Positions 9,092 to 41,744 of a stretch of DNA of 48,504 nt are shown in pieces. Numbering within the stretch: position 1 is the stretch's first letter; every line of letters starts with the position of its first letter. The stretch is from an uncultured Myxococcales bacterium. Lineage in GTDB: Bacteria > Myxococcota_A > UBA9042 > UBA3505. Position numbers and translations under genes: made by a program. The stretch is from NCBI GenBank assembly GCA_964594295.1, contig CAZQPP010000003.1, positions 1 through 48,504 on the forward strand, given 5' to 3'. The notes below the pieces were generated by a model. The model did not search any database and was not told the DNA's origin. It saw nothing but the letters and a program-made list of their open reading frames with translations.

Positions 9092-10219
9092 TCAGAGGAG
9101 CTCGCGTAGAGCCGCGCCGAGGACCGCGATGTCCTGCGCGTCGTTGTAGTAGTGGACCGAGGCGCGCAGGGAGCCCCGCCGGCCGTTGATGATGATCCTG
9201 CGCTCGTGCAAGGCCGCCACGATCTGCTCGCAGCGATCCGGATCCCTGGGAGTGAAGCCGATGATTCCGGACTTGCGCTCCTGCTCTCCGCGGAAGGAGT
9301 TGATGTTCACCGGCAGCTGCCGGAGCTCATTCTCCAGCAGGTCCGAGAGCTCCAACACCCGCGTGGCGATGGCCTCCTGTCCCAGCTCCCGGGTGATGCG
9401 GCAGGACTCCATGATGGCGGCCACCTGGGCGAATGGCAGGCTCCCGAGCTCGATGGCGCTGCAGTCGGCCCGGATCTGTGGCGGGTCGTTGGCCATGGCC
9501 CAGGGATTCTCGACACTGCACCAGCCGGGCAGCGGCCAGGAGCGCCCGGCCCGGAAAGCCGGGCTGGCGTAGAAGACCGCGTGGCCGATGCCGGCGCAGA
9601 ACCACTTGTGGCAGGAGGCCGCAAAGGCGCTGACCTTGGCTTCCTCGAGCGCTATGGGGAAGGCGCCCAGCATCTGGGTCCCGTTGACGATGAACGGCAC
9701 TCCGCGGCGCGCCAGCTCCTCGCCGAGGCCCTCGAGGTCCATCCGGAATCCGTGCAGGAACTGCACGCCGCTGACCACAACCGCGGCCGTCCGGCGACCG
9801 AGCTTGGAGATCACGTCCTGCGTCTCCAGACGACCGTCACGCAAGGGGATGAGCCGGACCCGAAAGCCGTGGTGGTGCCAGGCCAGAACCGAAGCCGGGA
9901 ACTCGTCGGCGGGAAGAAGCACCTCCCGCTCCGGCCCATCCTTCAGCATCAGGGCCAGCATGTTCATGAGCAGCGAGGTGTTGAGCCCGAAGCCGATGTC
10001 GGCCGGCTCGACTCCGAGGAGTCCGGCCACCTCCGCCCGCGCTTCGCCCAGAAGCGCGAAATACTCGTGCTCCTCTGCCGCGCCCTGCGCGCAGGTGAAG
10101 TCGTTCCACCTGGCCAGGGCCTCCCGCGTGCGCCGGTGCATTCCGCCGACCGCCGCCGTAGCCAGATAGGTCTTGTCCCGGACGACCGCGAACTCCTGGC
10201 GGGTGCGCTCCCAACCCAT
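9092..10219 (-). CDS. aminotransferase class V-fold PLP-dependent enzyme (cysteine desulfurase / selenocysteine lyase-like)
   Basis: Track ORF of 375 aa with the general class V layout. ASCHKWF provides the His-Lys PLP-lysine context. ATG 10219 has GAGGAAG upstream. Confidence 0.8.
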   Translation of the reverse strand: MGWERTRQEFAVVRDKTYLATAAVGGMHRRTREALARWNDFTCAQGAAEEHEYFALLGEARAEVAGLLGVEPADIGFGLNTSLLMNMLALMLKDGPEREVLLPADEFPASVLAWHHHGFRVRLIPLRDGRLETQDVISKLGRRTAAVVVSGVQFLHGFRMDLEGLGEELARRGVPFIVNGTQMLGAFPIALEEAKVSAFAASCHKWFCAGIGHAVFYASPAFRAGRSWPLPGWCSVENPWAMANDPPQIRADCSAIELGSLPFAQVAAIMESCRITRELGQEAIATRVLELSDLLENELRQLPVNINSFRGEQERKSGIIGFTPRDPDRCEQIVAALHERRIIINGRRGSLRASVHYYNDAQDIAVLGAALRELL

Positions 10220-10252
10220 TTGCTTCCAGCTTCCTCGTGCTTTGGGCCTGTC

Positions 10253-10418
10253 AGCCTAGTTCCCGTCCTGAAACTCCCGTTTCAGGACGGGGGCTGTTAG
10301 CCGTTAGCTGTTAGCCGTTAGCCAGGCACCTGAGATCACTGCATTCCGGCTAACCGCTAATCGCTAATCGCTAATCGCTGCATCCTGAAACGCGAGTTTC
10401 AGGATGCACACCAGCCTA
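10253..10418. repeat. 166-bp composite palindromic intergenic element, copy A (MITE/REP-like, or a structured leader RNA)
   Basis: 164/166 identical to 25078-25243 in the same orientation. It contains two perfect 13-bp-stem hairpins (10262-10291 and 10379-10408) and opposed heptamer arrays (10296-10323 GTTAGCC-type, 10348-10375 GGCTAAC/CGCTAAT-type). AGCCTA sits at both ends. Confidence 0.9.
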
Positions 10419-10572
10419 GCACACGCTCGCGGCGCATTCTCCCTCGGTGCTCCGCTTCAAGTCCGGACGCTGGCTCCACAATACCCGCCGCTGCTGCACT
10501 TTCCGTGGGCGAGCTGGGGTCGGCTCCTCTGTGGCCGTGGCGCTGACCGCGGCCGTGGCGCCGCCCGTCCCC

Positions 10573-10830
10573 TCATCCGTTGCCATCGGCGTGCTCCGCG
10601 ATCAGGTCTGCCACGCGCGCCCACCCCGCCGAGTGGATGCCGTGTCCCATGCCTTCGATCACCTCCAGCCGCGTGCCGGGATGGCTCGGGCGGTGGCCCG
10701 GGTGGCGGCCACCGGGAAGAGCGGATCGCGCGCTCCGTGGATGACCAGGGCGGGAGCGCGGACTCTGCGCAGGGCGCGGTGCGCGCGCAGGCTCCGACAT
10801 GGCGTCGAGCCCAACGATCTGTCATCTTGC
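10573..10830 (-). pseudogene. C-terminal remnant of an alpha/beta-fold hydrolase, frameshifted and lacking its N-terminal part
   Basis: Minus frame A reads RSLRAHRALRRVRAPALVIHGARDPLFPVAATRATARAIP and then reaches a stop at 10659. Minus frame B continues PGTRLEVIEGMGHGIHSAGWARVADLIAEHADGNG with its stop at 10573. Joined, the two frames give a typical hydrolase C-terminus. The junction falls in a C-run near 10677-10685, which implies a 1-nt indel. No GxSxG region can exist upstream because the plus-strand gene starts at 10857. Confidence 0.55.
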
Positions 10831-10856: not shown

Positions 10857-12248
10857 GTGGCTGAGCGCAATGGCATACGGCGCCGAGGGCTGCTCCCCCG
10901 TGGGCTGCGCGGCGCTTCGTTGATCGCGGCCGCTGTTGCGGTCGCGGCGGTTGTTGCCTACGCGGGCTTCTCTGCCTTCGACGGGGAGGGCCCCGCGGGG
11001 CGAGGCGCGAGCGATGGTGTCGCCTCGCACCCGGACGCCGCGGAGGTGGCCCGCAACTGGCCCCGCTTTCGTGGGCCCGACGGCTCGGGTCGCGTGGACC
11101 TGGCGGGTCTCCCGCTGAGCTGGGACGGCGAGAGCGGCGAGAACATCTGCTGGAAGACGGCGCTCCCCCTCGACGGGGCGAGCTCTCCGATCGTGTGGGG
11201 CGAGCGGATCTTCCTCACCGGGGCCAACGCCAAGGCACGCGCGGTCTACGGTCTCGACGCGCGCACCGGAGAGCTCTTGTGGACGCACGACTGCGCCGGG
11301 ATCAAGGGCTCTCCGCGAGGCAAGCCGCCCAAGGTCTACGGCGACTACGGTTTTGCTGCCTCGACGCCCGCTACTGACGGCCGGCGCGTCTACGCCGTCT
11401 TCGCCAACGGCGACCTGGTGGCGACCGACATGGAGGGCGAGCGGGTCTGGGCCACGAGCCTGGGGCTGCCGCAGAATCAATGGGGCTTCGCCAGCTCCCT
11501 GGTCATGTGGCGAGACCGGCTGATCCTCCTGTTCGACCAGCGGCGCCGCAAGCCCAACGTCTCCGAGCTGATCGCCTTCGACTCGGGGAGCGGTGAGGTG
11601 GTCTGGAAGGTGAAGCGCGACGTCCGGGGATCGTGGACCACGCCGATCCTCGTCCCCCACGGCGGGACCGAGGAGCTCGTCGCCGTCGCCGACCCGTGGA
11701 CGATCGCCTACGAGCCCGGGACCGGTCGGGAGCTGTGGCGGGCCCGCGGGCTGGGCGGGTTCGTGGCGCCATCACCAATCTTCGACGGCGAGAGGATCGT
11801 GATCGGGATGCTGGACTATGGGCTGACGGCGTTGCGGCCGGGGGGCGACGGGGAGGTCACGGCGAAGCAGCGTGCCTGGTCCAACGACGAGTCGGCTCTG
11901 CCCGACGTGGGCAGCCCCGCCAGCGACGGGGAGCTCGTGTTCACGGTGTCGACCTCGGGGACGCTGAGCTGCTTCGACGCCAAGACCGGCGAGCTCCTCT
12001 GGCAGGAGGAGCTCGAGCTGCGGACCTGGGTGTCGCCGAGCCTGGTGGGCGACAAGCTCCTCGTCTTCGGCCAGAACGGCGACGCGGTTGTGCTGGCGGC
12101 GAGCCGCGAGCTTCGCGAGATCGGGAGGGCGAGCCTGGGCGAGGGCCGCGTCTTCGCCAGCCCGGCGTTTGCTCGAGTGGCCGGCGCGCCGCGCATGTTC
12201 GTCCGCACGCAGAAGCACCTCTTCTGCATCGGTGCCGGCAGCCTCTAG
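10857..12248 (+). CDS. PQQ-like beta-propeller repeat protein (BamB-like fold) with an N-terminal membrane anchor
   Basis: Track ORF of 463 aa. An Arg-rich N-terminus is followed by the hydrophobic segment SLIAAAVAVAAVVAYAGF and then WPRFRGPDGSG. Repeated motifs of the type 'G..W' and 'a.d..tG..lW' are typical of PQQ_2-type propellers. Confidence 0.85.
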   Translation: MAERNGIRRRGLLPRGLRGASLIAAAVAVAAVVAYAGFSAFDGEGPAGRGASDGVASHPDAAEVARNWPRFRGPDGSGRVDLAGLPLSWDGESGENICWKTALPLDGASSPIVWGERIFLTGANAKARAVYGLDARTGELLWTHDCAGIKGSPRGKPPKVYGDYGFAASTPATDGRRVYAVFANGDLVATDMEGERVWATSLGLPQNQWGFASSLVMWRDRLILLFDQRRRKPNVSELIAFDSGSGEVVWKVKRDVRGSWTTPILVPHGGTEELVAVADPWTIAYEPGTGRELWRARGLGGFVAPSPIFDGERIVIGMLDYGLTALRPGGDGEVTAKQRAWSNDESALPDVGSPASDGELVFTVSTSGTLSCFDAKTGELLWQEELELRTWVSPSLVGDKLLVFGQNGDAVVLAASRELREIGRASLGEGRVFASPAFARVAGAPRMFVRTQKHLFCIGAGSL

Positions 12249-16154: not shown

Positions 16155-17684
16155 CTACTTGAAGCGGGCCAGGAAGCCCTTGATCAGCTTCCCGATCACG
16201 CCGAGCTTGCCGAGGGCGAGATCCCGCAGCGCCGCCGCCACGGTGAGGAGCGCCTCGTTGTAGGGGTACCACCACATCTCGCGGCGGCTGGAGCGGTCCA
16301 CGAGCACGAAGCGGGGGCGCACCATCTCCATCAGGGCCAGGTGGCTGTTGGTGGCGCCGAAGCCGGTCTCCTTGACGCCGCTCCAGGGCGCGTTGGGCAT
16401 GGCCGCGGTGAAGCCGTGGTTGTTCACGGTCACCACGCCCGCCTCGAGCTGGCTCGCGATGCGGAGACCGCGGTCTCGGTCCTTCGTCCAGACGCTGGCC
16501 GTGAGGCCGTACTTGCAGTCGTTGGCGAGGCGGACGGCCTCCTCCTCGTCCTCGACCACCTTGATGGGCATGAGCGGGCCGAAGGTCTCCTCGGTCATGA
16601 CGTCCATCTCGTGGCTCACGTCGGTCAGGATCGTGGCCGGGTACCAGAAGCCTTTGCTGTCGGGCACCTCGCCGCCGGTGAGCACGGTAGCGCCCGCCTC
16701 TCGGGCGCGGTCTACCTGGTCGATGACATCCTGGCGCTGGTCCACCGTGGTGAGCGGCCCGAAGTCCTCACCGTCACGCAGCTCCAAGGTGAGCTCCTTG
16801 ACGCGGGCGACGAAGCGCTCGGCGATGGAGCGGACGACGTAGACCCGCTCGATGGACGCGCAGTTCTGCCCCGCGTTGTTGAACGCGCCCCAGACGACAC
16901 CGTAGGCGGTTCGGTCGAGGTCGCAGTCCTCGAGCACGATGGCGGCGTCCTTGCCGCCGAGCTCGAGCGCGCAGGGGACGAGGTTCTCGCCGCAGTGGCT
17001 CGCGATGCGCCGGCCTATGCCCACCGAGCCGGTGAAGGCGATGAAGTCTGCGCCCGCGTCTACGAAGGCGGAGCCCACCGAGCCTCGGCCCAGGACCACC
17101 TGGAAGAGGCCGTCCGGGAGCTCGGGCGCGAAGACCTCGCCCAAGAGCTCGCCGAGGCGCGGACATTGGCTGCTCGGCTTGAAGACGACCGCGTTCCCGG
17201 CCATGAGCGCCGGCACGAAGGCCCGGCAGGGGATGGCCACCGGGAAGTTCCAAGGCGCGATCACGCCGATGACGCCCCGGGGCACGTACTCGAGGAAGGC
17301 CTTCTTTCCCGGGTAGTTGATGGGGTTGACGGAGATCTTCTCGGTCTTGAGGTATCGCTTGGCGTGCTTGGCCCAGTAGGGGAAGAGGTCCCCGTTGCCG
17401 ATGACCTCGGCGGTCCAGGCCTCGCCAGCGGGCTTCCCGGTCTCCGCCGTGAGCAGCTCGACGAATCGTTCGCCCCGCTCCAAGAAGCGCTTGTGAATCT
17501 GCTTGATGACCCTCGCGCGGTCGCTCATCGGTGTGGCGGCCCAGGTGCGTTGCGCGCTCCGGGCGCGCTCGAACACGGCGGGCAGGGCGTCTGCGGTCAC
17601 GCCGGGCACCTCGGCGTGGACCTCGCCGTCGCGCGGCGAGATGCTGGGGATCATCACGGCTGGACTCTGCGGTGCATCACTCAT
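16155..17684 (-). CDS. NAD(P)-dependent aldehyde dehydrogenase family protein
   Basis: From track ORF 16155..17825, trimmed to ATG 17684, which has GAGGAG 6 nt upstream. Motifs are FTGSVGIGRRI, ELGGKD and the catalytic Cys context NAGQNCASIERV. Confidence 0.9.
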   Translation of the reverse strand: MSDAPQSPAVMIPSISPRDGEVHAEVPGVTADALPAVFERARSAQRTWAATPMSDRARVIKQIHKRFLERGERFVELLTAETGKPAGEAWTAEVIGNGDLFPYWAKHAKRYLKTEKISVNPINYPGKKAFLEYVPRGVIGVIAPWNFPVAIPCRAFVPALMAGNAVVFKPSSQCPRLGELLGEVFAPELPDGLFQVVLGRGSVGSAFVDAGADFIAFTGSVGIGRRIASHCGENLVPCALELGGKDAAIVLEDCDLDRTAYGVVWGAFNNAGQNCASIERVYVVRSIAERFVARVKELTLELRDGEDFGPLTTVDQRQDVIDQVDRAREAGATVLTGGEVPDSKGFWYPATILTDVSHEMDVMTEETFGPLMPIKVVEDEEEAVRLANDCKYGLTASVWTKDRDRGLRIASQLEAGVVTVNNHGFTAAMPNAPWSGVKETGFGATNSHLALMEMVRPRFVLVDRSSRREMWWYPYNEALLTVAAALRDLALGKLGVIGKLIKGFLARFK

Positions 17685-22556: not shown

Positions 22557-23848
22557 GTCGCCCCTCCCCGCCTCCGGGCCGCTGCCTCACAGACGCGCCT
22601 CACGCTCGCCGCCATCCGTGAAGCGGTGTGGCGCTGCCGCACGGCGTCGCGTCCCCGCCGTGCCAGCTCCTCTCGCTTGGCCTCGTCGCAGAGCAGGGCG
22701 GCGAGGGCGTCGTCCAAGGACTCGGGCACCGAGGGGTCGTACAGGATGCCTCCTCCGGTGTCCTCCACGAGCTCCACGAAGGCGCCGTGACGCGGCTGGA
22801 CCACCGGGACGCCGGCGGCGAGGGCCTCGTAGACCGAGCGGCCCGACGACTCCCACGGCTCAGCGGGCACGGAGAACACGGTGAGCCCCTTCAAGAACGA
22901 GATCTTCTCGTCGCGCCCGAGGTCGACCTCCCAGGAGACGTCACCGGCGAAAGGCGAGGTCGCGAGCCGGCGCCTCAGCTCGGCGATGGTGTCGCGATCA
23001 GCCGGGACGGTGGTGCCCGCCACGTGGAGCCGGAGGTCTCGCAGCTCGTCTCGCTGCTTGAGGCGACAGAAGCTGTCGACCAGTCGAGCGAGGCCCTTGT
23101 CCTCACACTGCCGGGCGAGGTAGCCCACGACCGGCGGCTCGGGCGCCGCCCCCTCGACCGCGTCGTAGCCCGAGAGATCGAGCCCGGTCGGTACCAGCGA
23201 CAGCCGCCCCTCTTCCACTCCGAGCCGCTGCGCCATGCGCTCGCCGTGGTAGCGGCTGAAAGCCGCGAAGGCGGAGACCTCGCCGGCGCGCTCGCAGAGG
23301 AGGGCCCAGGCCTCGCTCCGGTAGGGCTCGGGGAGCGCGCGCAGGAAGGTCTCCTCCCCTTGCAGGATGCACACAACCTGGGCGCCGGTCGCTTCGAGCA
23401 GCGAGCGCGCCAGGCCGAGGAGCAGCACGTTGGAGAGGCAGACGACGTCCGGGCGCTGCTCCGCGAGCCATCCGGCGAGCGCGCTCACCTCGGCGGCCTG
23501 CTTGCCGGTCTCGCCCCGGAGCGTGGAGACGGTGGTCTTCCCGAGCACCGACGCACGGGTCATCGTGCTCCTGCGCCCGGCCCAGCGCATGATCGACGGA
23601 CGCGACAGCAAGGCCGCGACCGGACGTGCCAGCCAGGAGAGCCCCATCTGGCGCAGCCCCACGCGGATGCCGTTCAAGAACAGCGGCGCGTGCGGTGCCT
23701 GTGGCTCGTCGAGCAGCGCCGGCAGGTACAGGGGCACGGTGATGACGTCCACACCGATCTCGTGCAGGCCGCGCGCCAGCGCGTTGTCGCGCAGGCAGGT
23801 GCCGCAGTAGAAGCCGCCCGCGCCGGGCGTGAGCAGGGCAACCCTCAA
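22553..23848 (-). CDS. glycosyltransferase family 4 (GT-B, group 1)
   Basis: From chimeric track ORF 22553..25033. The TTG 23848 start gives (M)RVALLTPGAGGFYCGTCL. The C-terminal motif EPWESSGRSVYEALAAGVPVVQPRHGAFVELVEDTGGGILYDP is typical of GT4. The gene overlaps both neighbours by 4 nt. Confidence 0.85.
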   Translation of the reverse strand: MRVALLTPGAGGFYCGTCLRDNALARGLHEIGVDVITVPLYLPALLDEPQAPHAPLFLNGIRVGLRQMGLSWLARPVAALLSRPSIMRWAGRRSTMTRASVLGKTTVSTLRGETGKQAAEVSALAGWLAEQRPDVVCLSNVLLLGLARSLLEATGAQVVCILQGEETFLRALPEPYRSEAWALLCERAGEVSAFAAFSRYHGERMAQRLGVEEGRLSLVPTGLDLSGYDAVEGAAPEPPVVGYLARQCEDKGLARLVDSFCRLKQRDELRDLRLHVAGTTVPADRDTIAELRRRLATSPFAGDVSWEVDLGRDEKISFLKGLTVFSVPAEPWESSGRSVYEALAAGVPVVQPRHGAFVELVEDTGGGILYDPSVPESLDDALAALLCDEAKREELARRGRDAVRQRHTASRMAASVRRVCEAAARRRGGAT

Positions 23849-25065
23849 GGCTTCTTGCTCTCCGGCGCCGGCTTCTTCTTCGCGGGCTCGCGCTTCGCGC
23901 CGAATGCGAAGACGCGGCCCTCCTCGCTGCCCACCACGACCACGCCGCCGGCGACCGCGGGGGAGGCGCTGACGGCGTCGCCGAGGTCGTAGGACCACTG
24001 CTCCTTCCCGTCGGCGAGGCCCAGGACGTACAGGCGGCCGTCCCCCGAGCCGACGATCACGTGCGAGCCGGAGATCACCGGTGAGGAGTCGACCTGGCCG
24101 TTGGTGCGGTGGGTCCACACCTTCTCCCCGGTCCCGCGGGCCAGGGCGTACACGTTGCGATCGCGGGCGCCGAAGATGACCATGTCCCCGTGCACAGCGG
24201 CCGACGAGATGATGCCGTCGGGCCCCAACGAGCGCTCCCAGCTGACGCGCGGGGCGCCCAGGTCGACGCGGACGAAGCGCCCGTCGTGGAGGCCGATGAA
24301 GGCGTCGCCGCCGTCGATGGCCACCGAGGCGCCCATGTAGGACTCGAGGGCCGCCGGCGGGAGCTTGGAGCCGTCCGAGACCTTCACCCGGTGCAGGAAG
24401 CCGTCGCAGCCCCCGGCGAGCGCGATCCCGGCCTGGATCGCCGGCGTGGCGTGCACGTAATTGCCGGTCTCGTAGGACCAGGCCGCCTTGCCGGTCGCGC
24501 CGTCGACGGCGTGGATCTTGCCGTCGTAGCTCCCGACGACCACGCGACCGCCGGCGTCGGCGTTGGCGCCGCCCAGGATCTTGTCGCCGGTGGCGTAGCT
24601 CCAGCGCAGCGCGCCGGTGGCGGCGTCGAGGGCGTAGAGCTTGCCGTCGGCGGCGCCGGCGATGACCGCTCCGCCGTGCAGGAGGGGAGGCGCCTCCACG
24701 GCGCCGCCCGCGGTGAAGGCCCACTCCACGGCCCCGCTCGCGAGCGACACGGCGCGGATCTTCTTGTCCTTGGAGCCGAAGTAGGCCCTGCCGTCGCCGA
24801 CGGCCGCCGTCGACTTCACGGCCCTCGAGGTCTTCACCTCCCAGCGCAGCTCCAGCGGCAGCGACACCGTCGAGCGCGCCACGCCGCGCTGCTCGGGGCC
24901 GCCGCGGAAGCTGGGCCAGACGCCGGTCTTGCCGGCCGTCAGCGCAGCGGCGCCCGCGCGAGCGGCGCCGGGCTCGGGCTCGGGCTCGGGAGGGCGTGTG
25001 CGCTTGGTGCAACACGCGCCCAGCACGGCGCACAACGCGGTGGTGAGCAGGAGCCTGGCTCTCAT
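23845..25065 (-). CDS. PQQ-like beta-propeller repeat lipoprotein
   Basis: Track ORF of 406 aa with the lipobox LGAC in MRARLLLTTALCAVLGACC, followed by WPSFRGGPEQRG. Repeats include YALDAATGALRW, HAVDGATGKAAW, YALARGTGEKVW and YVLGLADGKEQW. Confidence 0.88.
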   Translation of the reverse strand: MRARLLLTTALCAVLGACCTKRTRPPEPEPEPGAARAGAAALTAGKTGVWPSFRGGPEQRGVARSTVSLPLELRWEVKTSRAVKSTAAVGDGRAYFGSKDKKIRAVSLASGAVEWAFTAGGAVEAPPLLHGGAVIAGAADGKLYALDAATGALRWSYATGDKILGGANADAGGRVVVGSYDGKIHAVDGATGKAAWSYETGNYVHATPAIQAGIALAGGCDGFLHRVKVSDGSKLPPAALESYMGASVAIDGGDAFIGLHDGRFVRVDLGAPRVSWERSLGPDGIISSAAVHGDMVIFGARDRNVYALARGTGEKVWTHRTNGQVDSSPVISGSHVIVGSGDGRLYVLGLADGKEQWSYDLGDAVSASPAVAGGVVVVGSEEGRVFAFGAKREPAKKKPAPESKKP

Positions 25066-25077
25066 GGGGAGGATCTT

Positions 25078-25243
25078 AGCCTAGTTCCCGTCCTGAAACT
25101 CCCGTTTCAGGACGGGGGCTGTTAGCCGTTAGCTGTTAGCCGTTAGCCAGGCACCTGAGATCACTGCATTCCGGCTAACCGCTAATCGCTAACCGCTAAT
25201 CGCTGCATCCTGAAACGCGAGTTTCAGGATGCACACTAGCCTA
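25078..25243. repeat. 166-bp composite palindromic intergenic element, copy B
   Basis: It has the same orientation and architecture as 10253-10418. The two mismatches are 25193 C versus 10368 T and 25237 T versus 10412 C. It sits 12 nt upstream of ATG 25065 and 25 nt downstream of the livM stop at 25269. Confidence 0.9.
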
Positions 25244-25268
25244 TCAACGAATCGCAGGCGCTCCCCTG

Positions 25269-26363
25269 TCAGTACCGGAACGGCCACCCCAGGAAGTAGC
25301 GCTTCACCCTCAGCCACACGCCGAGGAGACCGAGGGGCTCGACGACGAGCACGAGGCACACGAGCACGCTGAAGATGAGCGTCGACTGCTGGGCGGAGCT
25401 GAGCTCGTTCAAGAGGGGCACGTAGCGGCCGGCGCTCTCCGCGAGGGGGGTGAGGAAGACGAAGGCGATGGCTCCCCAGACCGCGCCGAAGACCGTCCCG
25501 ATGCCGCCGAGGACTATCATCGCGATGTACTGGATGCTCATCTCGAGGTCGAAGGGGGGCTCGATGGTCAGGTACTGCTGCTGCATGGCGAACATTCCGC
25601 CAGCGATGCCCGCGAAGAACGAGCTGAGCCCGAAGGCGATGATCTTCACCCTGGCCGGGTGCACCCCGAGGGCGCTCGCCGCGAGGTCCTGGTCCCTCAC
25701 CGCCATCATGGCCCGGCCGGTGTTGGAGCGAGCGAGGCGGACGGCCCAGAGGGTCGTGGCGCCGGCGAGGACCAGGAACACAAGGTAGAGCTTCTGCCCG
25801 TAGACCAGGGTGAGGGGGCCCAGCTCCGTTGGCTTCGTGAAGCTGCCGAGGGGGTCGCCGCCGTCGCCTTTCGGGAAGCTGCCGTGCACGGCGACGGCGA
25901 TGCCGCTGACCCCGTGGGTGAGGTCGGGCAGGGAGTGCAGGAGGTGGTTGACGACGAAGAGCAGGCCCAGGGTCACGATGGCGAGGTAGAGCCCCCTGAG
26001 GCGCAGGGCGAAGGGGCCGACGAGGAGACCGACGGCAGCCGAGACGAGGCCGCCCGCGGGGAGGCCCAGCCAGAAGGGCGCGCCGAAGCGCTCCGAGAGG
26101 ATGGCGAGGGTGTAGGCGCCGAGGGCCAGGAAGGCCGCGTGCCCGAGGCTTATCTGCCCCGCGAAGCCCGTGAGGATCATCAGGCTCACCGAGCCCACGA
26201 CCGCCACGAGGGCCATGTTGCCGACGGTGAGCCAGTGAGCTCCCGCCACGAAGGGGAAGAGCAGGGCCGCCGCCAGGGCCAGCACGAAGCCCACCTTGCC
26301 CCAGAGGTCCGGCAGGAGCGCCAGGTCGTCCTCGTAGCGGGTGATGAGCGGGCGGGTCGGCAT
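25269..26363 (-). CDS. livM: branched-chain amino acid-type ABC transporter permease (LivM family)
   Basis: Track ORF of 364 aa. It is polytopic and hydrophobic and follows the LivH-type permease in the operon. The substrate is not established. Confidence 0.85.
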   Translation of the reverse strand: MPTRPLITRYEDDLALLPDLWGKVGFVLALAAALLFPFVAGAHWLTVGNMALVAVVGSVSLMILTGFAGQISLGHAAFLALGAYTLAILSERFGAPFWLGLPAGGLVSAAVGLLVGPFALRLRGLYLAIVTLGLLFVVNHLLHSLPDLTHGVSGIAVAVHGSFPKGDGGDPLGSFTKPTELGPLTLVYGQKLYLVFLVLAGATTLWAVRLARSNTGRAMMAVRDQDLAASALGVHPARVKIIAFGLSSFFAGIAGGMFAMQQQYLTIEPPFDLEMSIQYIAMIVLGGIGTVFGAVWGAIAFVFLTPLAESAGRYVPLLNELSSAQQSTLIFSVLVCLVLVVEPLGLLGVWLRVKRYFLGWPFRY

Positions 26364-30703: not shown

Positions 30704-30718
30704 CGCGGTCGCCGGAGC

Positions 30719-32113
30719 CTATTTGGGGGCCGCGGGAGCCTTCGCCGGGGCCTTCTCGGGAGCAGGGGTGGCCTTCGCCGGAGCCTTCTCGGGCGCCGCG
30801 GGAGCCTTGGGCTTCGCGGTTGCCTTGGGCTCCGCGTAGCCGGCGGCCACCGTCCAGCTCTTCTTCTCGAAGTCCGGCTTGAGCACGCGGGTCTTGGTGC
30901 TCGTCACGTAGGGCATGGTGGTGAGGTCGAGGGGCTGGATCATGCCGCCGGCGGTCCAGGCCTTCATGGACTTCAAGGCCTTGACGAAGCCCTCGGGGGT
31001 GATGTCTCCGGCCTCGATGGCGCGCCGCGCCGCCTCGATCTGGGTCAGCCCCTGGATGTAGGAGACGAGCACGTAGAAGTCGGACGTGCCGAGCTTCGCG
31101 CCGTGCTCATCCCAGGCCTTCATGAAGGCGCCCATGCCCGGCACGTTTTCGGCCCAGAAGGGCAGCCCGTTCATCCAGTAGAAGCCGCCGAGCACGGCGG
31201 CCGGGATGACCTTGGGGTCGAAGAAGCGGTCGATCCACGCCGGGGTGTTGCCGATCCAGACGGGCTTGTACTGGAGCTGGGCGGCGGTGCCGAGGATGGG
31301 CCCCGTGCCGCTCGGGAGGGTCACCAGCAGGACGTGCGTGGCGCCCGCCTCCTTGAGCGCGGTCACGACGGCGGTGACGTCCTTCTGACCGGGGGCGACG
31401 GCCTGCTCGGAGACCACCTTCACCCCGAGCTTGGCGGCGGCCTTCTTCCAGCCCTCGAGGCCGTCTTTGCCGTAGTCGTCCTGCTGGTAGACGACGCCGG
31501 CCTTGACCTTGTCCGCTCCGCCGGCCTGCTCCACGGCCCAGTCCACCGCGCGCATGGCCTCTATGCTGTAGGGCGGTCCGAGAGGCGGCGTGTAGTCGTG
31601 CTCCGACATCTTCGAGGACAGGGAGGCGGGGAAGGCGACCATCTTGTCCCGGGTCAGCCAGGGCCTCAGCGGGAGGGTGTTGGGCGTGCCGAAGCTCGTG
31701 GCGAGGAAGAGGACGTCAGCCTGGATGTCGTTGTAGCCCTGCACGGCTTTTTGCGGGTTGTAGCCGTGGTCCCGCTCCACCAGCTCGACCTTCCACCCCT
31801 CGGGGAGCAGCCCGCTGCCGCCGGCGTTGATGCGCGCCGCCAGGACGCGCTTGCCCAGCGCGTAGGGACGGCCGATGGCCGCCGCGCGCCCGCTCTCGTC
31901 GTTGAGCGCGCCGATCCGGATTGTCTTCTTCTCCACGTCGACGCCGCGGGCCGCCTTCGGGGCGGGCTTCGCCGGCTCCGCGGGCTTCTTGGCCTCGACG
32001 GCTGCCTTCGGCCCCGGCTCCGCGGGTGTCTCGGCGGTCTTCTCCTTGCAGCCCGTGAGCAGAAGCCCAAGGCAGGAGCAGACGACGAGCGAGAGTAACG
32101 CTACACGGTGCAT
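30719..32113 (-). CDS. ABC substrate-binding lipoprotein (type 1 periplasmic binding fold, Liv-type) with Pro/Ala/Lys-rich N- and C-terminal tails
   Basis: From track ORF 30719..32182. I prefer ATG 32113 (MHRVALLSLVVCSCLGLLLTGC, lipobox LTGC), which has GGAGG 6 nt upstream. ATG 32119 is the alternative start. Confidence 0.85.
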   Translation of the reverse strand: MHRVALLSLVVCSCLGLLLTGCKEKTAETPAEPGPKAAVEAKKPAEPAKPAPKAARGVDVEKKTIRIGALNDESGRAAAIGRPYALGKRVLAARINAGGSGLLPEGWKVELVERDHGYNPQKAVQGYNDIQADVLFLATSFGTPNTLPLRPWLTRDKMVAFPASLSSKMSEHDYTPPLGPPYSIEAMRAVDWAVEQAGGADKVKAGVVYQQDDYGKDGLEGWKKAAAKLGVKVVSEQAVAPGQKDVTAVVTALKEAGATHVLLVTLPSGTGPILGTAAQLQYKPVWIGNTPAWIDRFFDPKVIPAAVLGGFYWMNGLPFWAENVPGMGAFMKAWDEHGAKLGTSDFYVLVSYIQGLTQIEAARRAIEAGDITPEGFVKALKSMKAWTAGGMIQPLDLTTMPYVTSTKTRVLKPDFEKKSWTVAAGYAEPKATAKPKAPAAPEKAPAKATPAPEKAPAKAPAAPK

Positions 32114-32445
32114 GGTCATCCTCCGTCCCCGATCCGATGTGGCGGAGCGGAGACGGTGCCACGGGGCGGGGGACGATGGCAAGCCGACGGGCTCGAATCA
32201 GGGCCGCCGGCGTGCCGGCGTGCGCCCTCGCAGGCACTTCGCCTTTGACACCGCGCCGGCCATCCCGTACTTCAGCCCGCGTGGCCCGGGCTTGTCGTCC
32301 GGGCTCCGGTCCCTGTCGGGGCGGTCCTGCCGCCCATTCGCCCCGCGGTCTCTCGCGGGCATCCGACGCGCCGGCTCCAGTGCCGGGCCATGTGAGCACT
32401 CGGCGCCCCCGGAGCAGGATCGCTTCCCGTGCCGAAGGAGCCTCC

Positions 32446-34268: not shown

Positions 34269-35786
34269 TCACCGGCGGAGCGTCAGCGCGCCGGTGGGAC
34301 AGGCTGCCACGCAGGCCCGCGCGCTCCGCGTGAGCGCTTCTTTGAGGGTCGCGCCGGGCGGAGGGGCCACGCGGCGTTGGGCGCCGCGGCCCATGATCGC
34401 CAGGCCTACCGGCTCCGAGGCCTCCCGGGCGGCGTGCACGCACGCGCCGCAGCCGATGCACTTGCCCGGCTCGAACACGACCTCCGGGTGGCTGGTGTCG
34501 CGCTGCAGCGACCCGCGCGGGACCGGGTGGCGGCCCCGGCGGGCGCCGTAGCGGCTCGCGAGGGCGCGCAGCTCGCAGTCGTCCGCGGAGCCGCAGGCGC
34601 ACTCCAGGCACCTGCTGGCTTCGCGGGCGGCCTCCTCGGCGCTTCGGATCTCGCCCGCCGCGGGGCCGTGGGGCGCTCGTCGGGCCAGGCGGACGAGGTC
34701 ATCCCGGCCGACCTTCCCCGCGCGGGACGTGTGCTGCCTCGCTGAGGGCGCGGGCTCGGCGCCGGCGAGCCGCCGGCCGACCGCGCCGGCGAGGGCGCGA
34801 CCGGAGGCGCAGGCCCGGACGAGACGCTCGGTCGGCGCGACCGCGGCGCCGCCCGCGAACACCCCCTTCGCCGATGTCTCGAGCGTCGTGGTGTCGGTCC
34901 AGACGAGGCCCTCGTCCAGTCGGAGCCCTTGCTCTTGTCGCGCCGGGTCGCCGGCTCCGGTGGCGATGAGGACGGCGTCGTACGCCCGGCGCAGCTGCTC
35001 GAGGGGCAGGTCTCGCCCGACGCAGCACCCGGTCTGCGCCTCCAAGCCCAGCTCCCGGAGCGCCGTCAGGTCCGCCTCGAGGACGGCGGCCGGGAGGGCG
35101 CCCGCCGAGACCTGCTCTCGGAGAGACCCGCCGAGCTCGCCGGCGCGCTCGAAGACCGTGCACCGGTGGCCCCGCACGAGGAGGTGGAAGGCCGCGGACA
35201 GGGCTGTCGGCCCGCCGCCCACGACCGCCACGCGGCGCTCCGTCGGTTTCGCCGGCTCCGGGGTGTGGCCGGGGGCCGCTGCGGCGTATCGCTCCAGGCG
35301 CTGGATCGAGCCCGGCGCGTCGAGGCGTCCGCGGCGGCAGGCGGTCTCGCAGGGGGCGTGGCAGAGGTGGGCGAGCGTCCCTGGCAGCGCGTGGGCGGCG
35401 CGCACGAGGGCCGCGGCCTCGTCGAGGCGCCCCGCCGACAGGTGGAGCAACACGGAGGGGACGTCGAGGCGAGCGGGACAGGCGGCGCTGCAGGGCCCCG
35501 TGCAGTCCCCGAGGTGCTCGGCGAGGAGGAGCTCCACCGCCGATCGTCTCAACTCGAGGAGGCGCGCCGACTCGGTCACCACCACCATGCCCTCGCGAGC
35601 GCGGGTGGCGCAGGCGGGGACCGGCTCCCCGTCGGCCTCGACGACGCAGAGCATGCACGAAGCCGTCGCCGGTCGACCCTCGCCGTAGCACAGGGTGGGC
35701 ACCTCGACCCCCGCGGCCCGGGCGACGTCGAGGATGGAGGCGCCGCCTGCGGCGTTGACCGGGGTGCCGTTGAGGTCGAGCTTCAT
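34269..35786 (-). CDS. 2Fe-2S ferredoxin domain fused to a GltD-like NAD(P)H/FAD oxidoreductase, with C-terminal 4Fe-4S motifs
   Basis: Track ORF of 505 aa. The N-terminus is NuoG/Fdh-type (MKLDLNGTPV...LCYGEG...ASCMLCVVE...PACAT). CTGPCSAACP and CHAPCETACRRG are GltD N-terminal clusters. VAVVGGGPTALSAA is a dinucleotide fold. KGVFAGGAAV and the C-terminal CIGCGACVHAA...CVAACPTGAL are also present. Confidence 0.85.
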   Translation of the reverse strand: MKLDLNGTPVNAAGGASILDVARAAGVEVPTLCYGEGRPATASCMLCVVEADGEPVPACATRAREGMVVVTESARLLELRRSAVELLLAEHLGDCTGPCSAACPARLDVPSVLLHLSAGRLDEAAALVRAAHALPGTLAHLCHAPCETACRRGRLDAPGSIQRLERYAAAAPGHTPEPAKPTERRVAVVGGGPTALSAAFHLLVRGHRCTVFERAGELGGSLREQVSAGALPAAVLEADLTALRELGLEAQTGCCVGRDLPLEQLRRAYDAVLIATGAGDPARQEQGLRLDEGLVWTDTTTLETSAKGVFAGGAAVAPTERLVRACASGRALAGAVGRRLAGAEPAPSARQHTSRAGKVGRDDLVRLARRAPHGPAAGEIRSAEEAAREASRCLECACGSADDCELRALASRYGARRGRHPVPRGSLQRDTSHPEVVFEPGKCIGCGACVHAAREASEPVGLAIMGRGAQRRVAPPPGATLKEALTRSARACVAACPTGALTLRR

Positions 35787-38128
35787 CTGCCTTCACCTCC
35801 GTCGCGCGGAGAGACCGTGGTGACGGCGTCGAAGACACACACGTCGGCGCAGATCCCGCAGCGGCTGCACGAGGAGAGATCGACGGCGTGGCGTTCGTAG
35901 GGTCGCGCCTCGATGGCCCCGTCGGGGCATGCCGCGGCGCAACGGGTGCAGCCCGTGCAGGCGTCGCCGATGCTCACGTCGACGAGCGCCCGGCAGCGCC
36001 CGGCCGGGCAGATCCCGCGCACGTGGGCCTCGTACTCCTCGCGGAAGTGGCGAAGGGTCGTCAGCACGGGGCTGGGCGCCGAGCGCCCGAGGCCGCACTG
36101 GCTGCCCCCCTCGACCAGCGCGCTCAGGCTCTCGAGCTCCGCGAGGTGTGCAGCCGAGGCGCGCCCCTCGCACAGGTCCTCGAGCAGGTCCCGTATTCGG
36201 CGGGTGCCGACCCGGCAGTAGGTGCACTTGCCGCAGGACTCGGCCTGCGTGAACTCGAGGAAGTAGCGCGCCACGTCCACCATGCAGTCGCGCTCGTCGA
36301 GCACCACGAGACCGCCCGAGCCCATCATGGCGCCGATCTCCCCGAGGGACTCGTAGTCCAGCGGGGTGTCCAGCAGAGCGGCGGGTACGCAGCCCCCGAG
36401 GGGACCGCCGACGAGGATCGCCTTGAGCGCGTGGCCCTCGAGCACGCCGCCGCCGATGTCGAAGACCAGCTCCTTCAGCGTCGTGCCCAGCTCCACCTCG
36501 ACGAGGCCGCCGTGCACGACCTTGCCCGCCAGCGACAAGACCTTGGTCCCGGCCGCCTTCTCGGAGCCGAGGTCCGCAAAGGCGGCGGCGCCGTTGCGGA
36601 GGATCCACGGCACCATGGCGAAGGTCTCGACGTTGCTCACCAGCGTCGGGGCGCCGTCCAGGCCGTGCTCTGCGGGGTAGGGCGGGCGGACGGTCGGGAT
36701 GGGGCGGGCGCCCTCGAGGGAGGCGATGAGCGCCGTCTCTTCGCCGCAGACGAAGGCGCCGGCGCCGCGGCTCAGCGAGACTCGAAGCGGCGCCATCGCT
36801 TCCGGCCACCCGCCCTCCTCGAGCCGGTCGATGGCCTCGGCGATGCGCCGCACCGCGTGGGGGTACTCGGTTCGAACGAAGACCACCGCCTCGGAGGCGC
36901 CCACCGCGTGGGCGGCGATGGCCATGCCCTCGAGAACGCGGAAGGGGAAGGACTCGAGGAGCATGCGATCCATGAACGCACCCGGATCGCCTTCGTCCCC
37001 GTTGCAGATGACCGTCTTGGCGCCGCCCGGCGTGGATCTGACGAGCTCCCACTTGCGGCCCGCGGGGAAGCCCGCGCCGCCGCGGCCGCGGAGACCGCTG
37101 CGCGAGACCTCGTCGCAGACCTCGGCCGCCGTCATCTCCAGGGCGCGCCGCAACGCTTCGAAGCCCCCGCGCGCGACGTAGCCCTCGAGGTCGAGGGGCT
37201 CGCCCTCGCCGGGGTGCTCGGTGGCCACGTGGCGCTGCCGTTCTCGCTGCTCGGTCAGCCACGGCTCCCACGCATCGGCGAGGTATGCGTCCGGCAGCGC
37301 GCGGGTGTCCTCGGTGACGAGGCCGTCGACCACGAAGTCGAGGGCGCGCCGCACGCGCTGCGCGATGCCCCTGGGCGGGGCGTGGCGCCGGAGGATGTTT
37401 CGGGCGGCGGCGGGGTCGACGTTGGCGTAGCGCGTGACCGCGCCGCTCGGCTCCACGATCTCCACCAGCGGCGTGGCGCTGCACAGCAGCTCGCAGCTCG
37501 CGGCCTGTAGCGCGGCGGGAGCTCGCAGGTCGGCGATGCTCCGGGAGAAGCTCCCGAACACACGATCCGCGCCTCGAGCCGCGCAGCAGGAGTCCACGCA
37601 GACGCGCACCTGTACGCCTCCGCGGCCGGCGGGCGCCTGCGGGGCCGAGGGCGGGAGCAGCGCCTCGCGGGCCTGCTCGAGGAGGCGTGGCGCGTCGTCG
37701 GGCGCCACGGGACCGTAGAGGGTCTGGTCGATCTGCACGGCGGGGGCGAGGGCGCAGCAGCCGAGGCAGGCGACCTTGGAGACGGTGAACTCACCGTCGG
37801 GGTCGGTGTCGCGGCCGTCCTCAAGATCGAGGGCGCGGATGAAGGCGTCCGTGACCCTGTCTGCGCCGCGCAGGTGGCAGGCGGTGCCGTGGCAGACGCG
37901 CACGAGGTGGCGCCCGGCAGGCTCGAAGCGAAAGGCCGCGTAGAAGCTCGCCACGCCGTAGAGGTCGGCGCGCGGGCGCTCGAGGGCGTCGGCGAGCCGG
38001 GCCATGGCCTCGGGAGGGAGGTAGCCGCAGGCGCGCTGCACGTCGTGCAGCAGGTTCAGGACCTGCCTGCCGCCGCCCCCGTGGCGCTCGAGCGCGGACT
38101 CCGCCGCGGCGATGGGCGACGGGGCCAT
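35783..38128 (-). CDS. fused NuoE-like (2Fe-2S) and NuoF-like (FMN/NADH, 4Fe-4S) subunit with a C-terminal 2x[4Fe-4S] ferredoxin domain
   Basis: From chimeric track ORF 35783..39997, starting at ATG 38128 (residue 624), giving 781 aa. NuoE motifs are VCHGTACHLRG and VACLGCCALAP. NuoF motifs are GLRGRGGAGFPAGRKWE, ICNGDEGDPGAF and ESCGKCTYCRVG. The tail carries CTGCTRCAAACPDGAI and CSRCGICADVC. Confidence 0.9.
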   Translation of the reverse strand: MAPSPIAAAESALERHGGGGRQVLNLLHDVQRACGYLPPEAMARLADALERPRADLYGVASFYAAFRFEPAGRHLVRVCHGTACHLRGADRVTDAFIRALDLEDGRDTDPDGEFTVSKVACLGCCALAPAVQIDQTLYGPVAPDDAPRLLEQAREALLPPSAPQAPAGRGGVQVRVCVDSCCAARGADRVFGSFSRSIADLRAPAALQAASCELLCSATPLVEIVEPSGAVTRYANVDPAAARNILRRHAPPRGIAQRVRRALDFVVDGLVTEDTRALPDAYLADAWEPWLTEQRERQRHVATEHPGEGEPLDLEGYVARGGFEALRRALEMTAAEVCDEVSRSGLRGRGGAGFPAGRKWELVRSTPGGAKTVICNGDEGDPGAFMDRMLLESFPFRVLEGMAIAAHAVGASEAVVFVRTEYPHAVRRIAEAIDRLEEGGWPEAMAPLRVSLSRGAGAFVCGEETALIASLEGARPIPTVRPPYPAEHGLDGAPTLVSNVETFAMVPWILRNGAAAFADLGSEKAAGTKVLSLAGKVVHGGLVEVELGTTLKELVFDIGGGVLEGHALKAILVGGPLGGCVPAALLDTPLDYESLGEIGAMMGSGGLVVLDERDCMVDVARYFLEFTQAESCGKCTYCRVGTRRIRDLLEDLCEGRASAAHLAELESLSALVEGGSQCGLGRSAPSPVLTTLRHFREEYEAHVRGICPAGRCRALVDVSIGDACTGCTRCAAACPDGAIEARPYERHAVDLSSCSRCGICADVCVFDAVTTVSPRDGGEGR

Positions 38129-41100
38129 CACGGCGCTCCGATGCACAGGAGCTGGCCCTCGGTGCGCAAGAACATGCGCGCCTCGCCCCCGACGCGTGCG
38201 AAGGCCGGGCTCGCCGACATCTTCAGGCCTGCCAGGGAGGCCTCCCCGAGCACCCGCGGGTTGCCCTCGGCGGCCATGACCAGGGCGCGGCCCTTGCGGG
38301 TGAAGAGCAGCAGGCGGTCGCCGACGAGGCTCGGCGACACGTAGGTGCTCCCGCCGATGCGGTGGGTCCACAGGCGCTCGCCCGACTTCAGGTCGAAGCA
38401 GCTCAGCCTGCCGCTGCTCGAGACGGTGAAGACGAGCGCTCCGTTGCTCACCGGGCTCGCCACGTCGGGGAGGCTGCCCACCTCGCGCACCCACGCCGTG
38501 TGGCTCTCGGTCACGTCTCCGCGTCCTCCCCGGCGCAGCGCGAAGATGCCGTGTCCCTCCATGACCCCGACGACGAGCTCGCCGGCCAGCACGGGAGAGG
38601 GCGTCGCGAAGCCGCCGAGCTGCTTGGAGCGCCAGATCTCCTCTCCGGTGGCCGCGTCGTACTCGATGACCCACGGCGGGGCTGCCGTGACAAGGCGCGG
38701 GCCCTCCGGCCCGTCCGCGACGAAGGGGGTCGTCCAGGAGGCCTCCACGTCGCGTTCGCGCTTCCAGCTCAGCCGGCCTGTGGCGGCGTCGTAGGAGCGC
38801 AGGGAGGAGAGGTCCCCGCTGGGGCCTGTCTGGTCGAAGGGCACGATGAGCTGATCGCGCCAGATGATGGGCGAGCTGGCGTGGCCCCACTGGTTCTGGG
38901 GCAGGCCGAGGGCGTGCGCCCAGACCCTGCGCCCGGCGCGGTCGACGGCGTGCAGGTCTCCGTTGGCGAAGATCGCGTAGACACGCTTGCCGTCGGTCGC
39001 CGGCGTCGAGGCCGCGAAGACGTCTCGCTCGTAGACCTCCGGCGCCTCCTTGGGGCTGGTGCGGAGCTCGCCTGCCTCGTAGCGCCACAGCGTGTCGCCG
39101 GTCGCTGCGTCGAAGGCGAAGATCGCGCGGCGGTCCTTGTTCGCGCCGACGGCGTAGACGCGGCCGTCCCAGACGACGGGCGAGCCCGCGCCAGCGAGCG
39201 GCACGGGCGCGCGCCAGACCACGTTGCGGCCGGTCTCCACGTCGAAGTCGAGGGGCACCTCGGTGAGGGCTGTGCGTCCGGCGCCGCCGGGGCCGCGGAA
39301 GCGCGGCCAACGCGCCTCCGCTCCGCCGTGCTCGACGGCCGCCGGCACGGCCCGCTCGGGGGCGCGCAGCGCGCCCGCGACGGCGAAAGAGCTCGCGAGC
39401 AGGAGCCCGCCCGTCGCGGCGACGGACCAGCGACCCTGGCGTTTGCGCCGGCGTGCCGAGTCGGGCGCTTGCGGCTCGGTCGGGGCCTCCGGCGACGTGC
39501 GGAGCGAGCTGCCGATGCGCAGCGCGAGGAAGAAGATCACGAGCCCGAAGACCAGGAGCGTGCCTCCGGTCTCGCTGAGGGCGCGCCCCCGGAAGTGGGC
39601 ACTGCGCAGCTCCAGATCGAGGGCGCGCACGCGCTCCTCGAGGTCGACGGTGTCGGCGCCCGCCGGAGCGCTCGCCAGGCTCCGCTTGGCCTCCGTCAGG
39701 GCCTCCGGCGGCGCGAGGATGCTCGGCTCCTCGGCGGCCGGGCTGTTGAAGAGCAGGAGCGTCGCCACGACGAGGCAGAAGACGGCCGAGAGCGCGGCCG
39801 AGAGGTCGGCGGCGCGGCGAATGGCCTTTCGCGAGGGAGGCTCGTCGGTGCGTGTCGAGGCGGGCGCTCCAGGGAGCACCCCCGCTGCCAGGGGCCGCGC
39901 CGGAGCCGCGGCTTTCTCCTCCGGGCACCTGTCGTAGCAGCGCCCGCAGGCGACACAGTGGCCCGGGTCGGCCTCGTAGTCCTCGCGGCGCCGCCACCCC
40001 GAGAGGCTCAGGAGCTTGGCCCAGAACAGGAGGCCGAGCCAGAGGCCGCCGACCATCGCGCCGGCGCGGACGCGGGCCTCGGTCGCGTCGGCCTCGGCCG
40101 TGACCTCCGACGTGCTACGCGCCGCGCGGCGGAAGGCCTCGATCTGGTCTTCGGCGACGGCGTCCAGAGCCTCGCCCCGTTCCACGGCGGCGAGGGCGTC
40201 CCCGAGGCGGACCGCCTCGTGCGTGCGGGCCAGCGGCTCGCCGACGAGGTGGCCCGCCGCGCCCGACGCGAGCAGGACCACCGGCAGCAGCGCCAGGATG
40301 AGCCGGATCCGCTTGCGTCCGGCCGCGCGCTGCGGAGCCCGGAGGCTCTCCGTGGGCACGTCGATAGCCTCGTAGGGGCAGCTCTCCTCGCACAGGCGGC
40401 ACTGTACGCACCGATCGGTGAAGATGCCGAGCCGCCAACGCGCCAGCGGGGCGAGCATCGACAGGAGCGCGCCGTAGGGACAGAGGTAGCGGCAGTAGGG
40501 GCGGCCGACGAACATCGAGAGCAGCACGAGGCTCCCGCCGAAGACCAGCATCGGCGTGGTCCCGCTCAGGCGGAAGATGCCCACGAAGGGGTCGTACTCG
40601 CACACGACGAAGGCGGCTCCGGTCGCCGCGAGGACCACGGCGAGGGCGAGGTAGGCGTGGCGCACCATGCGGAGGCCGTCTTCCAGCCACCGGGGCACCC
40701 GCACCGGCCACACCAGCACGGCCTCCTGCAGGGCGCCGTGGGGACACACGGCGGCGCAGAACACACGCCCGAACAGGAGCACGAAGGCCAGCGGAGCGAG
40801 GAAGAAGGCCACGACAGCGAGGGGCGCCGCGTAGCCGGGGTCGAAGACGGCGAGGGCGACGTTCTGCAGCGAGCCGATGGCGCAGACGCAGCCTTCGCGC
40901 CAGAACCCGAAGTAGGCGAGGCTGAATAGGCTCAGCCACACCAGGCCTCGTCGCGAGCGCTGCCGGTGCACGAGATAGGCCGCGGCGGCGAGGGCGAGGC
41001 AGAGCACGGCGATGTCGAGGTGCTCGAGGAGCAGCGAGCGCGGCGCCGGGGTCTGGAGGATCGGCGCCACGTAGTCCGGCCCCAGGTCCGGCGGCGGGAA

Positions 41101-41190: not shown

Positions 41191-41744
41191 CGGTCGGTGC
41201 TCTTGAGGATGTAGGGATTGGCCGCCGGTACGCGGGAGATCGCCTCGGCCGGGCACTTCGCCCCGATCGCGCACTCGTTGCAGCGGACGCAGCGGTCGTG
41301 GCGGATCTGCAAGAAGACCGATCCGTTGCCGAAGTCCCTGCAGGCCTTTACGCAGCGCCCGCAGGCCACGCACAGGTCCTCGTCGATGCTGTACTCGTAG
41401 TAGGGCTCCCGCACGTAGCGCCGCTGCAGCGCGTCCGTCGGGCACACGAGGTTCTCCGCGCCCGAGGTGCGGGCCGCGTGCTCGAGCTCGAAGTAGGCCG
41501 TGCACAAATCACAGTAGCCGCAGATGGCGTGCACCCGCACCGCGCGAACGGCCGAGGGGTTCTGCACGCAGTTGGTGGCGCAGCGGCCGCAGGCGATGCA
41601 CTTGTCGGGGTCCAGCTGCCAGACCGTGGCGCCGGACGTGCCGATCCAGACGAAGGCTCCGGCGGAGCCCGCGACGCCGGCGAGCAGCGCCTTCCGTGCG
41701 CCCCTTCGCAGGAACTCGCGGCGCGTCAGCGCTCCGTCAGCCAT
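41187..41744 (-). CDS. Tat-exported 4Fe-4S polyferredoxin (NapG-like)
   Basis: Track ORF of 185 aa. The twin-arginine motif TRREFLRRG is followed by a hydrophobic stretch. Four Cys clusters are present (CIACGRCATNC, CGYCDLC...CP, CVACGRCVKAC and CVRCNECAIGAKCP). Confidence 0.85.
   Translation of the reverse strand: MADGALTRREFLRRGARKALLAGVAGSAGAFVWIGTSGATVWQLDPDKCIACGRCATNCVQNPSAVRAVRVHAICGYCDLCTAYFELEHAARTSGAENLVCPTDALQRRYVREPYYEYSIDEDLCVACGRCVKACRDFGNGSVFLQIRHDRCVRCNECAIGAKCPAEAISRVPAANPYILKSTDR

Follow-up and report, generated by a model that had tools for sequence, protein, structure and literature searches.

A pair of near-identical sequences, each lying directly ahead of a gene, raises the question of whether they are regulatory devices dedicated to the genes that follow or copies of a selfish element that happened to land there. 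We met this question in a 48,504-nt stretch of a contig from an uncultured Myxococcales bacterium (hereafter the window, meaning the whole of the DNA analysed), in which the two sequences occupy positions 10253-10418 (copy A) and 25078-25243 (copy B). Both are 166 bases long, share the same orientation and differ at two positions, which a base-by-base alignment places at 25193, where copy B has C and copy A has T, and at 25237, where they have T and C, respectively. A repeat search of the window recovered them as the sole direct-repeat family of 169 nt (10253-10421 versus 25078-25246), with 98% identity and a spacing of 14,825 bp, the runner-up direct repeat in the window being 70 nt at 74% identity; upon alignment, the DNA surrounding the two copies is unrelated. 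The hairpin core TCCTGAAAC-N4-GTTTCAGGA occurs four times in the window, always within copies A and B, where the expected number is 0.

All four genes flanking the two copies are encoded on the minus strand. Copy A lies 154 nt from the stop codon, at 10573, of a minus-strand 75-aa ORF, which a preliminary description of this DNA had read as a hydrolase remnant and which lacks a Pfam match, and 33 nt from the ATG (10219) of a downstream class-V aminotransferase gene (9092-10219, minus strand). In transcriptional order, copy B is immediately preceded by a gene for a LivM-type branched-chain amino-acid permease (25269-26363, minus strand), whose stop codon (25269-25271) is 25 nt away, and immediately followed by a gene for a PQQ_2 beta-propeller lipoprotein (23845-25065, minus strand), whose ATG at 25065 is at a distance of 12 nt; behind the latter gene come those for a GT4 protein, an ABC ATPase and an FtsX permease. 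Alignment, the ORF listing and Pfam bear out what the preliminary description had stated on the second near-identical copy, its distances to the neighboring genes and the unrelated flanks, and it was likewise correct in noting that outside the element copy B leaves no space for a promoter, with 12 nt to the ATG and 25 nt to the stop codon. The propeller protein itself displays a clear lipoprotein signal peptide, MRARLLLTTALCAVLGAC, and no Shine-Dalgarno-like motif was found within 30 nt upstream of its gene. The 12-nt spacer before this ATG, CUAAGAUCCUCCCC, resembles the anti-Shine-Dalgarno sequence and is predicted to pair with CAGGGGAG just past the livM stop codon, which would give a stem enclosing the element. 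At least six PQQ_2 propeller genes occur in the window; inverted repeats of 95-105 nt with 76-77% identity at 11323-12002 and 38368-39047 fall within two of these (10857-12248, plus strand, and 38128-41505, minus strand) and look like paralogous domains.

Dissection of the repeat, described here on the plus strand of copy B, revealed a symmetric organization around a 152-bp core (25085-25236, TTCCCG...GCACAC), the high-depth part common to the whole family of copies described below; the equivalent core of copy A (10260-10411) has a single difference from it, at 10368, which corresponds to 25193. Hairpin 1, the left terminal inverted repeat (25087-25116), has a 13-bp stem with the structure CCCGTCCTGAAAC / TCCC / GTTTCAGGACGGG, and hairpin 3, the right terminal inverted repeat (25204-25233), likewise has a 13-bp stem, with the structure TGCATCCTGAAAC / GCGA / GTTTCAGGATGCA. 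These two 30-nt palindromes are mutually inverted and stand 87 nt apart, the space between them being taken up by a central imperfect hairpin of 87 nt (25117-25203). Its left arm comprises four GTTAGCN heptamers (25121-25148), its loop 24 nt (25149-25172), and its right arm four heptamers complementary to these, in which about one position per unit is mismatched (25173-25203); these heptamer arrays could furnish extra binding sites or might be a product of slippage. The ends of the element (CTAGTTCCCGTCCTGAAAC... / ...GTTTCAGGATGCACACTAG) form imperfect inverted repeats that agree at 30 of 36 positions, and the entire element is an imperfect palindrome, which measures 168 bp when both flanking 8-mers are counted with the core. 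The GC content of the core is 55.6%, as against 70.7% for the window. Each of the six reading frames of the element contains two to six stop codons, and the element is without protein-coding capacity; element-encoded peptides, used as queries for gene calls that extend into it, returned one candidate and none that scored. Its predicted folding energies are -104 and -110 kcal/mol on the two strands, with z-scores of -9.6 and -10.2.

The element is present in eight public marine or seawater metagenome runs, of which four (X1-X4) were analysed for depth, and these reveal that copies A and B are members of a far larger population. Over 20 kb of the window the depth is 3-6x in X1 and X3, about 1-4x in X2 and about 0-2x in X4, and only the two bins holding copies A and B rise above this, to 19-85x. 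Unitigs of the element itself attain 120-180x in X1, 149-204x in X3, 100-132x in X2 and 21-40x in X4; next to core unitigs of 120-204x, the flanks are at 3-5x. The resulting ratio of element depth to single-copy depth is about 30-50 and follows the abundance of the organism across the four runs, which assigns the copies to this organism or its very close relatives. The family thus comprises roughly 30-50 near-identical copies per genome of this uncultured marine bacterium, a number that derives from the k-mer depth of assembled unitigs rather than from a count in a closed genome. At least 12 left flanks and at least 13 right flanks were recovered, all of them different and most at single-copy depth, with the flank of copy A itself among them. 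The earlier suggestion that the near-identity of the two copies stems from recent spread is supported by these tens of copies per genome in many unrelated surroundings. By way of a separate observation on depth, the segments 16977-16994 and 10639-10657 are matched by one contig, with 15 nt between them, at 32-68x in all four DNA runs; this is far above the depth of the present organism, and the contig probably comes from an abundant unrelated one.

The family also includes variants. One 167-nt unitig, at 15-18x, retains both terminal hairpins around a different 87-nt center of the same length; one contig carries a single hybrid hairpin that combines the left arm of hairpin 1 with the right arm of hairpin 3; two copies stand head to tail with a 6-nt spacer; and truncated members are present as well. 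Conserved ends in combination with a variable center are what mobility via recognition of the ends predicts.

We then examined the sequences immediately bordering the element. Copy A is flanked by the 8-mer CAGCCTAG on both sides (10252-10259 and 10412-10419, plus strand), an identity of 8/8, whereas the left 8-mer of copy B, TAGCCTAG (25077-25084, plus strand), a putative target-site duplication ending in CTAG, matches its right 8-mer, TAGCCTAT (25237-25244, plus strand), at the first seven of eight positions, so that TAGCCTA lies on either side of this copy (7/7). Only the first base varies among these repeats, and it covaries between left and right within each copy, which accounts for the difference at 25237. 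A further left flank, on the scaffold L081, ends in TAGCCTCG and has a right-flank counterpart, TAGCCTCG, composed of TAGCCT plus CG, on a separate contig. Depth profiles trace the same boundaries across the family: high-depth unitigs span 25084-25236, and at the left end in run X1 the depth passes from 120 at G25084 through 80 and 60 to 50 at C25081 and then to about 8, while at the right end in run X2 it declines from 132 to 56 through TAGC (25240) and to 12 through 25242. From these steps, CTAG bounds the element on each side in about 40% of the family members. Based on two complete copies and one left/right pair from different contigs, we propose that the copy-specific 7-8 bp direct repeats probably arose by target-site duplication, the preferred site being similar to TAGC-CTAG. 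The flanking 8-mers could also be decaying outer parts of the element, as they are strongly alike (NAGCCTAG) and only two complete copies contribute to the comparison. A duplication of just 4 bp (CTAG) or of TA was rejected: the ends of copy A (CTAG versus CCAG) do not fit a 4-bp direct repeat, and the boundary base is always G on the left and always C on the right.

In light of this apparent preference, the distribution of CTAG in the window is of some relevance. There are nine occurrences (10256, 10416, 12245, 18504, 25081, 25236, 32737, 33629 and 33833) where about 130 would be expected from base composition, a depletion of about 14-fold, and four of the nine are at the ends of the element, the longer AGCCTAG being found nowhere else in the window. 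Six of the nine, including the four at element ends, fall outside predicted genes, and one coincides with the stop codon of the 10857-12248 gene. A preference for such sites, which are rare in a 71% GC genome and mostly intergenic, would on its own account for the location of both copies in short intergenic spacers.

Taken together, these features lead us to regard it as rather probable that the element founds a new family of MITE-like, non-autonomous small mobile repeats, and the location of copy B beside a start codon is most likely the landing place of a selfish element and not the mark of an operon-specific regulator. Under this proposal, a transposase encoded elsewhere in the genome would recognize the hairpin-forming ends of about 36 bp and place the element at sites that are rare, AT-richer and contain CTAG, with a preference close to TAGC-CTAG, and 7-8 bp would be duplicated in the process; no transposase or RAYT-like gene was found within the 48.5-kb window. 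The closest architecture is that of the described prokaryotic MITEs (QMITE2, Correia/NEMIS of Neisseria, pneumococcal RUP and ERIC), with which it has in common a length below 200 bp, inside the size limit of about 500 bp for MITEs, a non-coding, intergenic and multi-copy nature, a composition AT-richer than that of the genome, terminal inverted repeats, short flanking direct repeats and very stable stem-loops, which are predicted in the present case. The layout is nearly the same as that of QMITE2 from Coxiella burnetii, in which direct repeats of 7-9 bp and inverted repeats of 23-29 bp enclose a core of 113-145 bp, and whose transcript forms a stable stem-loop (PMC10969869). Stop codons in all six frames are a property likewise of the 155-bp Correia element, RUP and the Caulobacter CIR (PMC2229807).

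The element nonetheless departs from the known MITEs in several respects: its ends are not TA, each of its inverted repeats is itself a perfect 13-bp hairpin, and its center is made of inverted arrays of a 7-nt unit; Rfam, phage and plasmid searches yielded no sequence similarity to any described family. An internal short tandem array within a MITE has a precedent in BrickBuilt of Porphyromonas gingivalis, which is always intergenic and present in about 19 copies (PMC4596501). Its 23-nt unit forms a direct array with bidirectional promoter activity (PMC4596501), whereas the 7-nt units here form two mutually pairing inverted arrays in which no promoter motif was found. Similarly, the element resembles CIR in being intergenic in a high-GC genome, in having 5' and 3' parts that fold independently and in its six-frame stops; CIR, the mobility of which is unclear, has an exposed GANTC methylation site as its defining feature (PMC2229807), and the core of the present element is without a GANTC site.

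A scan of a genome collection with TCCTGAAAC-N4-GTTTCAGGA returned at least 69 loci, of which none of those listed contains the heptamer motif, and which we take to be chance matches; the two-hairpin pattern in a metagenome collection retrieved only one unrelated AT-rich tandem repeat (L070); and hairpin 1 had no matches among viral contigs. BLAST of the element against phages returned nothing, and against plasmids only 31-nt matches to the heptamer run, on three unrelated plasmids. In all, no copies of the element were found outside these marine samples in the collections scanned. Certain other classes of repeat were set aside by inspection: the order of the half-sites in the hairpins and heptamers is wrong for parS, GTTAGCC departs from the GTTRRRY core of attC and no integrase is nearby, and a CRISPR-repeat reading finds no cas genes in the vicinity.

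A different kind of mobility would make the element one of the REP/REPIN type, in which a single-copy RAYT (Y1/HUH) transposase moves paired inverted palindromes in single-stranded form without duplication of the target. Several aspects of the family recall such elements: both ends are palindromes of 30 nt, within the 20-40 nt of REP units, and stand in opposite orientations; the copies whose surroundings are resolved here lie outside genes, between co-directional ones, in a family of tens of copies; and a conserved short tag, CTAGT, directly precedes each palindrome on its 5' side. The general architecture of REPINs (PMC3116915, PMC3337134) matches as well, and the inverted palindromes around a spacer and the population of near-identical variants are shared with REPINs and BIMEs (PMC3116915, PMC3337134, PMC3733652). 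The REP tags named in the abstract of PMC3733652 are GTAG and CGTC. The sequence 5' of both palindromes is, on the contrary, CTAGT(T/G), with no unpaired GTAG or CGTC. Further, typical REPINs are shorter than this element of about 160 bp, the copy-specific 7-8 bp direct repeats at A and B, with their apparent target duplication, are unexpected from an insertion of the RAYT type, and a RAYT-like gene is absent from the window; we consider this reading unlikely. A palindromic element derived from IS200/IS605 was rejected: elements such as IS608 and ISDra2 have asymmetric ends and subterminal hairpins on one strand, with neither inverted repeats nor a duplication, whereas the present element has symmetric ends in the form of inverted repeats, and both of its copies are bordered by direct repeats.

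As the element is repetitive, we also asked how far the joins across it can be trusted, for the repeat might be real and the contig of the window nevertheless mis-joined across copies A and B. Other assemblies give some grounds for this concern, as in none of them do both flanks of either copy adjoin as they do in the window. The JGI contigs L071, L074 and L077 end inside the element, while ENA scaffolds propose other partners: L075 and L076 join the left flank of copy A to a different right flank, and L081 joins the right flank of copy B to a different left flank. These alternative joins (L075 4380-4770, L076 672-1062 and L081 1990-2710, to be compared with 10203-10592 and 25028-25417 in the window) come from two to three samples, and could result from assembly errors at the repeat or from genuine recombination between copies. 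The flanking repeats, on the other hand, match best across the joins of the window, where 8/8 and 7/8 bases agree, the rare first base among them, and less well across those of the ENA scaffolds, at 7/8 and 6/8. Moreover, L077 links the left flank of copy A to the private internal SNP of that copy, while the other allele occurs in L075 and L076, and it would seem that these two are the hybrids. On these sequence comparisons we favor the arrangement of the window over the ENA joins, with its adjacencies taken as putative, and a mis-join appears improbable. That short-read assemblies break or mis-join at the element is itself a consequence of its being a repeat. No contig in the metagenome runs skips the element to give an empty site at either location.

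Two aspects of these scaffolds deserve separate mention. The right flank of L075 and that of copy B have GAATCGCAG in common. Beyond the element in the alternative join of the ENA scaffold L081 lie 496 nt (2215-2710, minus strand in the orientation of the locus) that have no gene call but many hairpins of the CTTCGG type, a fold z-score of -6.4 and no Rfam family, and that include a terminator-like GGCGGACC-CCAC-GGTCCGCC followed by GTTCGTGTTTAAT; this region may be an undescribed structured RNA.

The remaining major alternative is that the element is a dedicated cis-regulatory element of the flanking operons, acting as a structured 5' leader, an internal promoter or a terminator/insulator, and indeed the preliminary description had concluded from the tight spacing that copy B must be one of these. 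The spacing does entail that any signal for the propeller operon be located in or upstream of the element, given the gaps of 12 nt and 25 nt. The fold is very stable on both strands, the stop codons in six frames and the three hairpins would uncouple the neighboring genes, and REP, ERIC and Correia repeats are known to affect the fate of mRNAs (PMC2229807). That it must be so is not sustained by our searches. No promoter of the sigma-70 type was detected in or beside copies A and B, no intrinsic terminator (a hairpin with a T-run) around them on either strand, and no Rfam 15 family in the window at gathering thresholds, the sole match at E<10 being to a plant miRNA model with 15 bits against a cut-off of 110. 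Nor does a dedicated role fit well with about 30-50 copies amid unrelated flanks, or with the genes downstream of the two copies, which are functionally unrelated. Metatranscriptomes from the same studies (four of the six listed) gave no contigs on the region, an uninformative negative given that the organism attains only about 4x even in DNA runs.

Comparison with a relative is also informative in this regard. The closest homologue of the propeller protein, at 78% identity, is encoded on a JGI contig that has the same propeller-GT4-ABC operon; this operon begins 3 nt after a gene for an Fe-S/flavin oxidoreductase, the ortholog of which in the window is at 34269-35786. The 3-nt gap leaves no room for the element, which is thereby excluded there and is not a conserved leader of the operon; it also implies that the propeller operon is normally read through from upstream. 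On a second contig from the same sample (JGI 3300072015, the source of both contigs), the liv cluster of the relative is followed by a Zip transporter gene 367 nt past livM. Gene order at both junctions differs in this relative, which at 78% identity does not provide an orthologous empty site, and copy B is, judging from this gene order, at a break in synteny. The window has about 9 kb, comprising a gene for a CxxCxxCC-domain protein and the liv cluster, between the oxidoreductase gene and the propeller operon. Within the window, a gene for a periplasmic binding protein (30719-32182, minus strand) has three tandem 33-nt units with 74-88% identity (30709-30808) at its 5' end and in its upstream spacer, possibly a repetitive linker or leader. 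In view of the copy number, the absent signals and the operon of the relative, a dedicated regulatory function strikes us as very unlikely.

Returning to the mobile-repeat interpretation, copy B would probably be located inside a read-through transcript that extends from the liv genes into the propeller operon, and would be passively carried along. By analogy with REP, ERIC and Correia repeats (PMC2229807, PMC10969869), its three hairpins could protect the upstream RNA or be cut by RNase III, with RNA stability, RNA processing or a lower expression of the downstream genes as possible side effects. On this simplest reading a regulatory role is not required, and any effect on expression would be a by-product.

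The most speculative alternative, to which we assign the least probability, posits a domesticated module of gene boundaries, spread or retained by the host between co-directional genes, in which the heptamers bind a protein while the hairpins and stop codons insulate operons. If this were true, the GTTAGCN arrays would be sites for a protein encoded by the host or the element, insulation would extend to transcription, RNA decay and translation alike, and recombination between copies would reshuffle operons, of which the location of copy B at a synteny break and the alternative joins in other assemblies give a hint.

The element opens no new kind of biology, and its value lies mainly in annotation and assembly, as the repeat explains breaks or mis-joins in short-read assemblies of this organism. 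It also cautions against inferring operon-specific regulation from a sequence that is present dozens of times. At the same time, it adds a well-defined family to the sparsely cataloged small mobile repeats of uncultured high-GC marine bacteria, recognizable by its hairpin-forming inverted repeats, its inverted heptamer array and a probable preference for CTAG targets; should an effect on read-through be measured, the family would offer a further test case for how repeats shape expression at operon junctions.
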